IMG/VR virus record: IMGVR_UViG_3300019378_001956
Origin: a virus
Reading direction: 5' to 3' (one strand)
Length of the DNA stretch: 22,591 nt
This document shows positions 5,776 through 10,649 of the stretch, in pieces; position 1 is the stretch's first letter, and each line of letters opens with the position of its first letter. A program made the position numbers and the translations under genes. The notes below the pieces were generated by a model. That model saw only the letters and a list, made by a program, of their open reading frames with translations. It did not search any database and was not told where the DNA came from.

Positions 5776-5970
5776 TTATTTTTTCTTTGGTACTTTATTC
5801 ATCTCTTTATGTAGGTCTGCTCGACCTTTTGTGATAAATAATGTTTGAGCTAAGGTTAAATCGCCCAAGTTATCACATAAATGATATCCGCAGTAATCTA
5901 ACCATATTATATTTTTAGCTTCATTCGTCTTCAGGAAAGTCTTTAACTTCTTTTTCCAAGTCATCATCAT
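5776..5970 (-). CDS. Tail assembly chaperone extension (gpT-like), probably made by +1 frameshift from the upstream chaperone
   Basis: Overlaps the chaperone 3' end by 50 nt, lies directly upstream of TMP, is in the +1 frame and has no clear RBS. Confidence 0.7.
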   Translation of the reverse strand: MMMTWKKKLKTFLKTNEAKNIIWLDYCGYHLCDNLGDLTLAQTLFITKGRADLHKEMNKVPKKK

Positions 5971-6370
5971 CTAAACCAGATATAATTCTGACTTGATCAT
6001 AAATTTCATCAAAAACACGCCTGCCCATAGCCTCTACTTCATCACGAGTAAATGGATCATCTTTATAAACATCATTATCCAGACTTAAAAATACTGCCTC
6101 AATTTTAGCTTTAGCAGAAGCTTTTCCAGTTTCTTTTACATTGATTTTTGCTTGAGCTTCCATTTGAGATTGAATTTGTTTTCTTCTACTTCTATTTTTT
6201 GCTCTTTCAGTAGTGGTGTATTCCCCAATAGCTTCATTTTCTATTTCTTCTATTTTGTTCCATTCACCATTACTCAAAGGTCTTAAGGCGACAGTATCGT
6301 CTTTTGATTTGATATATCTTTCTTTAGTTTCATTTATTCCATTTAATATTTGGGATTTAGTTAACACCAT
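5921..6370 (-). CDS. Tail assembly chaperone (gpG-like)
   Basis: 149 aa, acidic and helical, between major tail protein and TMP; GGAGGT RBS upstream. Confidence 0.8.
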   Translation of the reverse strand: MVLTKSQILNGINETKERYIKSKDDTVALRPLSNGEWNKIEEIENEAIGEYTTTERAKNRSRRKQIQSQMEAQAKINVKETGKASAKAKIEAVFLSLDNDVYKDDPFTRDEVEAMGRRVFDEIYDQVRIISGLDDDDLEKEVKDFPEDE

Positions 6371-6436
6371 GTTAATTTACCTCCAAGTTTTTTCCATTTT
6401 TAAATTTTAAAAAAAAATAAGATTAATTTAAAACCT

Positions 6437-6685
6437 CTATTGAGGTTCTAAAGTAATTTCTAATGTTTCAGTACTAGAAGTGATTATTACCTCTTGACTG
6501 TAAGTTACGTAACCTGTTTTTGTTGCAGTTACAGTAACTGTACCTACAGGAACATCATGTAATGTACATCCACCTTGACTACCAGTAGTGCCTGTAATTT
6601 GGCCTATTGCAACTTCAACTTGACTTACAGGGTTTGTTCCATCAGTTACGCTTACTGCTAAATCATCAATAGTTTCAGGATTCAC
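6437..6685 (-). CDS. Ig-like (PEGA/carboxypeptidase-regulatory-like) domain; probable +1 frameshift extension of the major tail protein
   Basis: 82 aa, VSVTDGTNPV...TGTTGSQGGCTL.DVPVG...VTATKTGYVTY pattern; GTG start one nt after the MTP stop; the +1 frame is open from 5 codons earlier (CTC CCA GTA ACT GAG GTG). Confidence 0.75.
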   Translation of the reverse strand: MNPETIDDLAVSVTDGTNPVSQVEVAIGQITGTTGSQGGCTLHDVPVGTVTVTATKTGYVTYSQEVIITSSTETLEITLEPQ

Positions 6686-6686
6686 C

Positions 6687-7721
6687 TCAGTTACTGGGAG
6701 CTATCTTAGGCTGGTTATTGACTAATTTTACATACATATCTGTAGTAACTTCTGTAGTATTATCTGCGAGCCTAACTTTTTCAGAACCAAGTGTGGCCAT
6801 GTTTAAGGTTGCTTCTACATCATCAATACCGGATGAATCAAATTCTGCTAACAATGTACATTTAGGGAATTTAATAGTTAAACCCAAACCAGGGTATTCA
6901 CATAATTCCACATTAAGTTCTAATGGAACTTGCAATATTTTACATTTAGCAGGCTCAAGAAGATCTACATCACCATACCGTGCATCTAATATTGCTCTTA
7001 CAGTTTCTTGAGTTAATGTAGTTACAATACTGATGCTGTTTTCTCTTTTATTTGCTTTAGCTTGTCCTTGAGGATGTCTATAACCAAAACCAATTGTTTT
7101 ATCGACATCATGATTGTTATTTCCTTCAAGAGTGAAACTTGTTTGTACACCGGCAGGATCATTACCATTCAATTTTAAGCTAACATCATAGAACATGATG
7201 AATAAATCATTTATTAACTCTTCAGCTCTTTCATATTCATTTTCATCTTCTAGAATATCAGCAAGTTCAGTTTTATAGATGAAATCTGCTCCAAGAGTCA
7301 TATCTTCAGAGGATACTTCGAGTTTCATTGAATCAACAAGTAATCCAAATAGATAGAAAACTAATTCATCATTGACTGATACTCCTCTGAAACTTTTTAA
7401 TAATTTAGATTCTCCACCCCAAAATTCATGAGTATTTTTATTATTATTTCCGGCTGTGAATTTATAGTTATCTAAGAATCCATAGAAGTAATGTCCAAGT
7501 ATTTGAAGGTTTGCTGAAGTTTCAATACTTCCACTAGGTTTTATTACGCCTGCTCTTGCTTTTTGATTCATTCTTGAACCGAAACTTTTGGTTACTGGTT
7601 CGTCATTGAGTTTAAAATCCATGCTGTCTACTTCATGGTCAAAATCTAAGTCAAACTCTGCTTTTTCTTTATCCTCCCCATAGACGGCTTCGGGTTCCAA
7701 ACCAAATACTCTACAACTCAT
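6687..7721 (-). CDS. Major tail (tube) protein
   Basis: 344 aa, acidic and beta-rich, FGLEPEAVYGE N-terminal motif typical of tail tube proteins; located between the tail terminator and chaperones; GGTGA RBS. Confidence 0.8.
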   Translation of the reverse strand: MSCRVFGLEPEAVYGEDKEKAEFDLDFDHEVDSMDFKLNDEPVTKSFGSRMNQKARAGVIKPSGSIETSANLQILGHYFYGFLDNYKFTAGNNNKNTHEFWGGESKLLKSFRGVSVNDELVFYLFGLLVDSMKLEVSSEDMTLGADFIYKTELADILEDENEYERAEELINDLFIMFYDVSLKLNGNDPAGVQTSFTLEGNNNHDVDKTIGFGYRHPQGQAKANKRENSISIVTTLTQETVRAILDARYGDVDLLEPAKCKILQVPLELNVELCEYPGLGLTIKFPKCTLLAEFDSSGIDDVEATLNMATLGSEKVRLADNTTEVTTDMYVKLVNNQPKIAPSN

Positions 7722-9099: not shown

Positions 9100-9651
9100 T
9101 TATTCGTTTGTGATAGATACATAAATTCCTGCTGAAGTTGTGCCTGCATCAGTATATAACGGGTAGATTGTACCGTTTGTTTGAGCATCACTTGTAATAT
9201 AGAATTTTTGACCTACAAATGATTCTTCAGGACTATTGGTTAATACTTCAACTTCAGTATAACCACCAGATACTACTCCAGTAGTTTTTACTGTTCCACT
9301 ACCCCATTCAGTTTCTCCTTGAGCATCACCATAACTAGTGAATGCATAATTTACTGTTTGTGGTGTAGGATTTGATTCTTCAAGTACAATGCTTAATGAA
9401 CTTGTTTCACTATTTACAGTTAAAGTACTTTCATAGTCAACATAACCAGATTTAGATGCTACAACTTCATATTGTCCTTCAGGAACATTGCTTATTGTGC
9501 ATCCTCCAGCACTACCTGTTTTTCCAGTGTACTCATTCTCACCATCAGATAATGTTACATCAACATTTCCTATTGGATCTGTTCCATCTGTAACACTTAC
9601 ACTAATGTTATGAGTAGTGGCAGGTGTTGGTGATGGAGGGATTAAGCTTCC
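9100..9651 (-). CDS. Start-codon-less 183-codon ORF: Pro-rich linker + Ig-like domain + second beta-rich domain; probable -1 frameshift extension of the major capsid protein (absent from ORF track)
   Basis: Manually translated GSLIPPSPTPATTHNISVSVTDGTDPIGNV...GIYVSITNE*; frame open 9696-9100 with no in-frame ATG/GTG/TTG; overlaps the MCP stop in the -1 frame; exactly fills the gap to the next gene's RBS. Confidence 0.85.
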   Translation of the reverse strand, partial: GSLIPPSPTPATTHNISVSVTDGTDPIGNVDVTLSDGENEYTGKTGSAGGCTISNVPEGQYEVVASKSGYVDYESTLTVNSETSSLSIVLEESNPTPQTVNYAFTSYGDAQGETEWGSGTVKTTGVVSGGYTEVEVLTNSPEESFVGQKFYITSDAQTNGTIYPLYTDAGTTSAGIYVSITNE

Positions 9652-10649
9652 TTTAACCAGGCTAAACCAATTGCATCTTCTTCTACAAATTGTACATCAG
9701 CATACATAGTAGAAGCAATATCCCATACATTAGCTCTTAAGTTAAAAGCAGATTCAACGATAATTCCTTCAGGGTCAGTTAACCATTGAATATTCTCTTT
9801 ATGAGTTAAAATTACTGGTTTTTTAGTGAAACCATTCATAGGATTACTGAAACTAGGAACTGCGAATAAATGCATATCTTCAATTACAGGTTCACCAGTA
9901 CTGGAAATATAAGCATTCATATCTAATTTATCATGATTCCATGCAATGTATCTGTAAGCAGCAGTAACAAGTTTGGATGGGGCAAACATTGCCAATCCCC
10001 CATCATTTTTATAAACATCAGGGAACTCATCCAAGAAATGATATATTTCTTGTATTGGATTGGAATCATCGGCAGTTAAATCAATTTCTTCATTGTTTAA
10101 ATCAGCATCAGATGATGCTTTTTTAAGAATACCATCAACAACTTTATAACCAGTAGAAACATCAGATTCAGAACTGGATTTATCTCCATAAACAAGAACT
10201 CTTTCTAATGCTCTACCATTTGCTTGAGCAAACATTTCAGTTAAAGTATTCATGAATTTTTGACCTTCAATACTGTCTTTCATTACAGTACGATGAACAC
10301 CAGTTAATGCACGGAGTTCTTCAGCATCAAAACTCCTGTCAGTGAAATTAGGTTCTTGAGAATCAGATAATACTTGAGGAGTACCTGAGATTCTACCTGC
10401 TTCTAATTCAACGTTAAAACGGATTTTATCTACTTGTCTTTTATGATTAGTTGAAGTAATTCTTTTAGTTTTTTCAAGAAATACTGCATTGTCTTCTAAG
10501 TGTCTTATGTAAGTGTCAGATTTTTCTGCTTGTAAAACACCATTATTTAATTTACCTTCACCTTGGCCGATATCAACAAATTTGATTACAAATTTTTCTC
10601 CAAGGTCTACTTTTTGTTTGATTTCATTTTCTACTATCTGAATTGACAT
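9642..10649 (-). CDS. Major capsid protein (HK97 fold, PBSX XkdG-like)
   Basis: 335 aa after protease/scaffold; GVLQAEKSDTYI, KDSIEGQKF and ALERVLVYGD motifs resemble XkdG-type capsid proteins; GGTGA RBS. Confidence 0.9.
   Translation of the reverse strand: MSIQIVENEIKQKVDLGEKFVIKFVDIGQGEGKLNNGVLQAEKSDTYIRHLEDNAVFLEKTKRITSTNHKRQVDKIRFNVELEAGRISGTPQVLSDSQEPNFTDRSFDAEELRALTGVHRTVMKDSIEGQKFMNTLTEMFAQANGRALERVLVYGDKSSSESDVSTGYKVVDGILKKASSDADLNNEEIDLTADDSNPIQEIYHFLDEFPDVYKNDGGLAMFAPSKLVTAAYRYIAWNHDKLDMNAYISSTGEPVIEDMHLFAVPSFSNPMNGFTKKPVILTHKENIQWLTDPEGIIVESAFNLRANVWDIASTMYADVQFVEEDAIGLAWLKEA

Follow-up and report, generated by a model that had tools for sequence, protein, structure and literature searches.

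A candidate +1 frameshift at CCC_A that would add a transthyretin-like domain to the tail tube protein of a Methanobrevibacter virus

The addition of immunoglobulin (Ig)-like domains to the C-termini of phage capsid and tail proteins, by frameshift or by fusion, is presented as a general pattern in the passages of PMC5009743 that deal with it. In Bacillus phage SPP1, the tail proteins gp17.1 and gp17.1* are related by a +1 frameshift at CCCUAA (PMC6316719). The same passages of PMC5009743, which summarise Zimmer 2003 and Dorscht 2009 on the Listeria phages A118, A500 and PSA, give CCC_UGA as the signal of the Listeria phage tsh gene and describe, for PSA cps, a +1 shift at a CCC that precedes a sense codon (ACA_CCC_UCC) and has a 3' stimulator. 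A -1 frameshift at the slippery sequence A_AAG_GAA is reported for the capsid gene of MSTV1-like viruses in the pertinent passages of Baquero et al. 2024 (PMC11375127). Here we analysed a locus in a 22,591-nucleotide (nt) virus stretch (IMG/VR IMGVR_UViG_3300019378_001956; the whole stretch is called the window below), every gene of which lies on the minus strand. The window is from a tailed archaeal virus or provirus whose host is the gut/rumen methanogen Methanobrevibacter. Its tail tube gene is followed, in the +1 frame, by a small domain that is fused to the tube protein in relatives. An earlier note on this DNA had proposed that a Pro-tRNA slips from CCC to CCA at the end of the gene, citing SPP1 gp17.1 and Listeria phage structural proteins as precedents for slippage on CCC; both precedents are found in the literature (PMC6316719 and the passages of PMC5009743 on these phages).

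The window resembles SPP1 in several respects. In both, the major tail gene has a rare CCC close to its end, from which peptidyl-tRNA-Pro would slip by +1 onto an overlapping Pro codon; both extensions comprise about 85-87 amino acids (aa) and would form a small beta-sandwich exposed on the tail, with the tube domain shared by short and long forms. Five relatives of the window (L042, L045, L107, L109 and L006) carry CCC-TAA or CCC-TGA. The window itself, however, has the sense codon AGT after CCC, with the stop two codons later; its extension is CarboxypepD_reg/transthyretin-like whereas that of SPP1 is FN3; and its host is archaeal, with a conserved 17-nt Shine-Dalgarno (SD)-like element six bases downstream of CCC. 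To judge from the passages cited, PSA cps is a close parallel for the sense codon, since its CCC_UCC with a 3' stimulator resembles the window's CCC_AGU; a shift at a CCC that precedes a sense codon thus has a precedent backed by experiment. In that account the stimulator of PSA is a pseudoknot, whereas the window's element is a short primary-sequence motif. According to the same source, A118 and A500 combine a -1 shift on the capsid gene with a +1 shift on the tail gene, as predicted for the window, and CCC makes up about 5% of Pro codons in that low-G+C host, against 7% in the window. The ratio of 3:1 was measured in SPP1, and the Listeria cases, in bacterial hosts, have protein evidence in that account, whereas the window's system is predicted. 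The window's capsid gene carries the A_AAG_GAA site published for MSTV1-like viruses; PMC11375127 covers this capsid shift, whereas a tail tube frameshift is absent from its passages on frameshifting, the tail tube and Ig-like domains. The related virus vir075 has its tube and domain genes fused in frame, unlike the split window. As in the general pattern set out in PMC5009743, an accessory C-terminal beta-sandwich is acquired through +1, -1 or direct fusion in different relatives, but the methanogen-virus +1 forms differ from that pattern, as far as it is laid out there, in sharing a nucleotide cassette of fixed spacing across unrelated upstream genes.

We consider it likely that a tube-domain fusion protein is made through a +1 slip at CCC_A. 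The locus consists of a structural gene with an overlapping +1 open reading frame (ORF) that lacks an initiation signal of its own; a rare CCC at which the slip codon overlaps a second Pro codon in +1; and a frame relation and site that are kept in diverged relatives, with fused homologues. At the level of sequence, the comparison establishes this anatomy, the existence of the fused homologues, the conservation of frame, CCC and element, the missing initiation signal and selection on the extension.

The junction between the tail tube gene and the +1 frame

The features discussed below are as follows.

6687-7721, minus strand: zero-frame gene of the tail tube (major tail) protein (P0001, 344 aa), assigned from PF18906, phrog_35581, the vir075 homologue and gene position

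6695-6698, minus strand: proposed shift site CCC_A; CCC occupies 6698-6696 and the CCA with which re-pairing would occur 6697-6695

6687-6689, minus strand: zero-frame stop TGA of the short product, which is also the first three bases of the conserved element and is zero-frame in every cassette

6673-6689, minus strand: conserved 17-nt element TGAGGTGAATCCTGAAA, a candidate 3' stimulator, SD-like (GAGGTGA), starting six bases past CCC

6437-6694, minus strand: +1-frame extension of 85 codons (VTEVNPET...LEPQ) plus a TAG stop; a linker, then a predicted seven-strand beta-sandwich

The tube gene ends CCT AAG ATA GCT CCC AGT AAC TGA. A TAG at 6703-6701 closes the +1 frame, which opens again at 6700, overlaps the last four tube codons, reads CTC CCA GTA ACT GAG GTG AAT CCT and runs to the next stop, TAG at 6439-6437. 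The earlier note had described the ending ATA GCT CCC AGT AAC TGA and a +1 frame opening after an overlapping TAG, and the coordinates of the two stops (6703-6701 for the TAG, 6689-6687 for the TGA) confirmed that description. The chance of an 87-codon open frame in DNA of 32% G+C is about 0.001, as estimated from base composition.

Within the +1 frame, an 82-aa ORF (6437-6685) begins at a GTG (6685-6683) that lies one base past the TGA. The extension might accordingly be read as a separate small gene, with termination at TGA and reinitiation at GTG (TGA-G-GTG) yielding a free beta-sandwich of about 9 kDa that is not covalently joined to the tube. Such reinitiation, an alternative that the earlier note had named, is physically possible, the same placing of the GTG recurs in related tail-tube CCC_AGY cassettes of the clade, and gene callers annotate such +1 ORFs as genes in two relatives (L109 and L111). 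The 24 bases upstream of the GTG, however, contain no GGAGG/GGTGA-type ribosome binding site, as the earlier note had also claimed, whereas most well-supported gene starts of the window do have one. A free domain would also have no evident means of attachment to the tail, and reinitiation leaves both the invariant rare CCC and the strict +1 phase unexplained. The relatives, described in the next section, bear further on this alternative.

Under a +1 slip, most ribosomes would decode GCT CCC AGT AAC and stop at TGA, producing the 344-aa tube subunit (~38 kDa by length). In a fraction of ribosomes the peptidyl-tRNA-Pro on the P-site CCC would move one base forward onto CCA, and decoding would continue in +1 with GTA ACT GAG GTG..., producing a 427-aa subunit (~47 kDa) whose C-terminal part, a transthyretin-like beta-sandwich on a flexible linker, would stand out from the tail. 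With CCC_A read as a single Pro, the product is the 427-aa P0002, whose predicted junction peptide is ...NNQPKIAPVTEVNPETIDDLAV (also given as ...KIAPVTEVNPETIDDLAV and ...IAPVTEVNPETIDDLAVSVTDGTNPVSQVEVAIGQITG...). The slip from CCC to CCA had been the reading offered by the earlier note, and it gained support from the fused relatives, the invariant +1 phase and CCC, the CCC-stop forms, a lineage lacking start codons and the selection on the extension.

The +1-frame TAG and the zero-frame TGA enclose four codons at which a shift could occur (GCT, CCC, AGT and AAC), and of these only CCC can re-pair: the step from CCC to CCA alone retains two or three base pairs. CCC accounts for 12 of the 167 Pro codons in the window's genes (7%) and is usually the sole CCC of the tube gene. 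The fusion could in principle arise by another route: the polymerase might slip, the ribosome might shift by -2, or the shift might take place at one of the other codons. The needed frame change (+1 = -2) does not itself reveal the mechanism, and five consecutive C occur in some relatives (TCC CCC in L006). The window has merely three consecutive C. Homopolymers known to cause polymerase slippage are far longer than that, and transcriptional slippage is therefore unlikely here. The re-pairing potential speaks against the other three codons, and where a stop directly follows CCC, as in several relatives, the ribosome has to shift no later than at CCC; with the foregoing, this leaves this group of routes a very low probability in our judgement.

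The host's tRNA complement was considered in metagenome-assembled genomes (MAGs) that carry related proviruses. Two of these, G001 and G004, had 33 and 35 typed tRNA genes (loci L115-L186 and L241-L245), among which the only Pro tRNA was tRNA-Pro(UGG); tRNA-Pro(GGG) was not found in either. BLAST with tRNA-Pro(UGG) against four host MAGs recovered the UGG gene in three and none in G003, with no second Pro tRNA gene in any of the four. These results are suggestive of a host that decodes proline with tRNA-Pro(UGG) only. If so, CCC would be read by U:C wobble, and hence poorly, whereas CCA would be a perfect codon to land on, and CCA (or CCU) would pair better than CCC once the tRNA has slipped. 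In all 26 distinct cassettes described below and in the split relatives, CCC is followed by A or T, a rule that fits CCA or CCU as the better post-slip partner.

Split and fused relatives

Relatives were gathered through tube-protein similarity in viral contigs, genomes and metagenomes, and through exact-protein look-up. Split loci numbered 15 from three collection scans (~8 junction sequences) and a further six found by protein identity (~3 more), giving ~11 distinct junctions. In all 15 + 6 loci the domain lay in +1, never in +2, and CCC stood at the junction; the split tube sequences span 57-100% protein identity and come from independent assemblies. The earlier note had suggested conservation of CCC-A and of the frame as a check; CCC and the +1 frame were kept in every split relative, whereas the following base proved to be A or T. 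At none of the seven other conserved Pro columns was a single codon used across eight distinct sequences, and only 11 of the 79 conserved columns with four-fold or higher degeneracy had a single codon across the eight.

Fused forms were found at the level of both proteins and loci. P0002 matched phrog_35581 with 385 bits and covered positions 1-427 of the 434 in the profile; the match of the short ORF reaches no further than position 342. The vir075 tail tube protein is one 442-aa ORF with 49% identity to P0002 through the junction, and P0039, P0043, P0108 and P0122 (431-445 aa) are further fused relatives. In-frame fusions at the locus level comprise L001, L005, L113, L114 and L210; in L113 and L114 the junction reads TCT CCC ATA ATT GAG GAG A(A/C)T CCT GAA, with one base fewer between CCC and GAGG than in the split forms.

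The split forms fall into two classes. In the first, a stop follows CCC directly: CCC TAA, the SPP1 signal, in L042 and L006/7, and CCC TGA, the signal of Listeria phage tsh, in L045, L107/8, L109/10 and L111. The second class, CCC AGY NNC TGA, contains the window, L041, L002/3, L044, L037/43, L046 and L048, and also L112 (57% identity). Two near-identical ENA contigs, L111 and L112 (tube protein 57% identical to that of the window), differ at this point, reading ACT CCC AGT CCC TGA and ACT CCC AGT CCA TGA, respectively; L111 has both a CCC_AGT and a CCC-stop site, and L112 has the upstream CCC_AGT alone, at the standard six bases from the element.

A lineage represented by L107/L108, with a tube protein 83% identical to that of the window, was informative about expression. 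The first ATG, GTG or TTG of its +1 ORF comes no earlier than codon 82, and 298 bases there went unannotated by the gene caller. Because the ORF lacks a start codon, the domain in this lineage would be expressible only via a frameshift. Candidate starts elsewhere are not conserved in position, the window's GTG being the variable position of the element, where other cassettes have GAG, GGG, GCG or GGA. With the domain covalently fused in still other relatives, reinitiation cannot, on this comparison, account for the relatives, and we regard a separate small gene as an improbable explanation for the window.

The split could also reflect a decaying gene or an assembly error, in which a one-base insertion interrupted a gene that had joined tube and domain, and production of the extension has ceased. 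Split and in-frame relatives do differ by exactly one base here, and the window resembles a provirus or a metagenomic contig, where decay is common. A protein of 344 aa with 99% identity is nevertheless on record from six other contigs, so an error in a single assembly can be dismissed, and the same +1 break at CCC recurs in the ~11 distinct tube sequences. The extension, moreover, has stayed open under constraint. The ratio of nonsynonymous to synonymous substitution rates (dN/dS) of the extension was 0.06 between the window and L041 or L044, at dS 0.41-0.55, and 0.05 between L041 and L044. By this measure, purifying selection on the extension is strong within the CCC_AGY lineage to which the window belongs, and since dN/dS is 0.05-0.06 we judge that it is very probably expressed in the CCC AGY class. 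The synonymous divergence also excludes a single recent clone as the source of the split forms. Decay or misassembly is thus extremely improbable.

The tube protein family shows all three states, a putative +1 frameshift, a putative -1 frameshift and direct fusion, and, in addition, forms with no domain at all. Many relatives are domain-less, among them most tube proteins of ~55% identity; long spanning frames in those ~55%-identical relatives were considered as extensions and mostly turned out to be the chaperone gene instead. In three IMG/VR and metagenome loci with tube proteins ~60% identical to that of the window (L008, L050 and L096), the tube gene ends TTA AAG GAG TAA and a very acidic frame of 61 codons (EEEPTEEEP...) continues in -1, with an A_AAG motif as at the capsid -1 site. 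This suggests that the tube protein of that lineage may be extended by a -1 frameshift.

A conserved 17-nt element downstream of CCC

The split forms share more than the codon and the frame. In every one, an almost invariant block, TGAGGNGAATCCTGAAA, begins exactly six bases after CCC, with one variable position among the aligned junctions (alignment A1); the earlier note had missed this element. It is kept in relatives with tube proteins only 57-59% identical, including L006 (identity to the window of 59% for the tube protein and 35% for the extension); two of the element's positions deviate in L109 and L111. In the +1 frame the element encodes E-x-N-P-E, and the synonymous positions of GAG, AAT, CCT and GAA are invariant.

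An exact-pattern scan of IMG/VR for the element returned 54 matches, 29 of them with CCC at -9. The combination CCC-N6-TGAGGNGAATCCTGAAA, followed by a domain in +1, also occurs 3' of major capsid genes of the SU10_MCP PF17236, phrog_1623 and PF05065/phrog_10 types, where the +1 domain is CarboxypepD_reg/prealbumin-like (IMG/VR loci L224/L240, L198/L218, L201/L205/L206, L212/L238 and L233). The sense-codon forms at capsid genes are CCC AGT CCT TGA, CCC AAA GAA TGA and CCC AGC GAC TGA; the others are CCC-stop. Altogether 26 distinct cassettes have the same six-base spacing, 13 with a stop after CCC and 13 with a sense codon (AGY or AAA), and the window falls in the sense-codon half.

The core of the element, GAGGTGA, corresponds to (G)GAGGT or GGTGAT, the motifs that serve as ribosome binding sites in the window; the anti-SD was deduced from these sites, as the four host MAGs contain no small-subunit rRNA. 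Internal initiation via the element was rejected, because no in-frame start is conserved 5-10 nt downstream, where GAA and ACT are followed by ATT, GTC, GTA or AAT. A role of the element as a stimulator, which we infer from the comparison, would likely be what makes a shifty stop dispensable. If something bound it in trans, for instance a 30S subunit retained on a ribosome binding site that lacks a start, it might obstruct the mRNA entry channel; alternatively, it might work through rRNA pairing. The base before CCC can pair with the element's variable base (U/A, C/G, A/U, U/G) in about half of the 26 cassettes. A helix between UCUCC in the region of the shift site and GGAGA in the element was not accepted as conserved, as it places U opposite U in the window's clade. 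In one further locus (L226:10353-10646, minus strand), the 3' part of the element is present as tandem copies (CCTGAAAC repeated) that encode PETPETPETPET in the linker; linker length thus appears to vary by repeat expansion of the element.

Several points weigh against a slip at CCC_A promoted by this element, besides the possible reinitiation at the GTG. A slow A-site codon or a stop directly after CCC is absent in the window, whose stop comes two codons later. AGT, the codon after CCC, is used for Ser more often than any other codon in the window (131 of 345), and a hungry codon as the cause of the slip is thereby ruled out. Three other in-frame CCC_A sites are present in window genes, so CCC_A by itself cannot be strongly shifty. 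The host MAGs behind the tRNA observation are incomplete, lacking also tRNA-Trp, tRNA-Ala(UGC) and rRNA. The element lies downstream of the shifting ribosome, a place where an SD-like sequence has no established mode of action. Neither a stable nor a covarying RNA structure was found there: folding of the 99 nt 3' of CCC was no better than that of shuffles (z = +0.93), and RNAalifold on 11 relatives gave no covariation and only an invariant four-pair mini-hairpin (-2.3 kcal/mol). An Rfam scan of 6300-6900 gave nothing above threshold, with a snoRNA match of 20 bits against 45 taken as chance. The element is also present in the recently fused in-frame loci L113 and L210, and part of its conservation may therefore be at the protein level (P-x-x-E-x-N-P-E) or inherited; in the more diverged in-frame loci L114, L001 and L005 it is progressively lost. 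Finally, the cassettes from the pattern search were selected for possessing the element.

A broader proposal is that CCC-N6-UGAGGNGAAUCCUGAAA constitutes a portable +1 recoding cassette of methanogen viruses with a new kind of stimulator, a near-perfect SD-like sequence downstream of the shift codon. Such a cassette would equip capsid and tail proteins alike with one type of display domain, and it would benefit from a host in which tRNA-Pro(UGG) is the only reader of CCC. We put this forward tentatively, as a possibility that we think rather doubtful at present.

The extension domain, the source genome and the tail genes

The earlier note had called the extension Ig-like. A beta-sandwich is indeed predicted, but the fold is not that of a classical Ig domain: by model and Foldseek it is predicted to be transthyretin-like (CarboxypepD_reg), so that "Ig-like" applies in a loose sense only. 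The 82-aa ORF reached E 2.4e-7 and 31.4 bits against PF13620 CarboxypepD_reg, slightly below the curated cut-off (32.3), and the fused relatives carry a precomputed PF13620 assignment. An AlphaFold model, built on an alignment of relatives and covering the domain rather than the whole of P0002, had a predicted local distance difference test (pLDDT) score of 90 and displayed the seven-strand transthyretin-like fold. Foldseek matches, with template modelling (TM) scores of 0.67-0.73, included the C-terminal domains of carboxypeptidases N, D and M, 5aq0 (the transthyretin-like domain of carboxypeptidase D) and 9hfj (a SusC N-terminal extension domain). By analogy, the domain may serve in adhesion to the host surface or to gut glycans. 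In one relative (L048:780-1109, plus strand), the +1 extension is 114 aa long and has a Gly/Asn-rich insert of ~28 aa between the E-V-N-P-E-T linker and the domain.

A second domain of this type is encoded at the capsid gene (9642-10649, minus strand), which ends TGG TTA AAG GAA GCT TAA. A frame of 198 codons without a usable start (9100-9696, minus strand) overlaps it in -1, and the predicted -1 extension contains a CarboxypepD_reg domain (41.3 bits) and a second domain of ~90 aa. The tail extension domain is 46% identical to the domain in this capsid extension (alignment A2).

In a search of a phage collection, the sole nucleotide match to the window was Methanobrevibacter gottschalkii virus vir075, an animal-associated MSTV1-like virus according to the passages on it in PMC11375127, and its structural module has the same gene order as the window. 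Goat and roe deer are among the sources of four Methanobrevibacter MAGs that contain homologous loci. Because of the similarity to vir075, the shared structural order and the capsid A_AAG_GAA -1 site, we assign the window to the MSTV1-like viruses ("Usuviridae"), where by its structural module and capsid site it fits the animal-associated subclade.

Very little recoding has been documented in Archaea. In a 2021 review of the subject, a single -1 frameshift is backed by experiment and the haloarchaeal virus cases, one of them +1 (myovirus HSTV-2), are suggested ones (PMC8211752); to these the 2024 MSTV1 paper, in its passages on the capsid, adds a predicted -1 shift (PMC11375127). We found no publication on a +1 shift in a methanogen-virus tail tube gene, or in the tail of any archaeal virus, in a literature search whose scope left aside the compendium of Medvedeva et al. 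2023. The present analysis contributes the fixed-spacing element, the two site classes, the start-less lineage and the tRNA observation. A +1 shift at CCC in the tube genes of many rumen and gut Methanobrevibacter viruses would mean that the strategy of SPP1 and the Listeria phages works, or arose independently, on archaeal ribosomes, and that paralogous domains would be displayed by a single virus through -1 on its head gene and +1 on its tail gene. In automatic annotation such extensions are split off or missed; counts of "Ig-like" adhesion domains in gut archaeal viromes would then be underestimates, and virion proteomes should hold a 47-kDa tube species. The fixed-spacing 17-nt element provides a concrete, mutable candidate for a +1 stimulator that is independent of a stop codon, and the cassette, if the proposal is true, would offer a tractable system in which to study how archaeal ribosomes shift by +1.

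The identity of the tube gene was assessed from its product and its neighbours. P0001 scored 28.8 bits against PF18906 Phage_tube_2, above the cut-off of 27, and matched phrog_35581 with 361 bits and E 1.9e-107 (profile positions 1-342 of 434), and its vir075 homologue, 49% identical, is annotated as tail tube protein. The gene is flanked by neck/connector genes and a tail assembly chaperone (phrog_344), after which comes a tape measure ORF of 1462 aa. The profile match together with the gene position marks P0001 as a predicted siphovirus tail tube protein. The chaperone is itself encoded in two frames (5776-5970 and 5921-6370, minus strand), the second of which is +1, not -1, relative to the first. 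Their overlap, GAC TTT CCT GAA GAC GAA TGA, would make a TTT_C slip conceivable, and it also holds TCCTGAA, the core of the 17-nt element.

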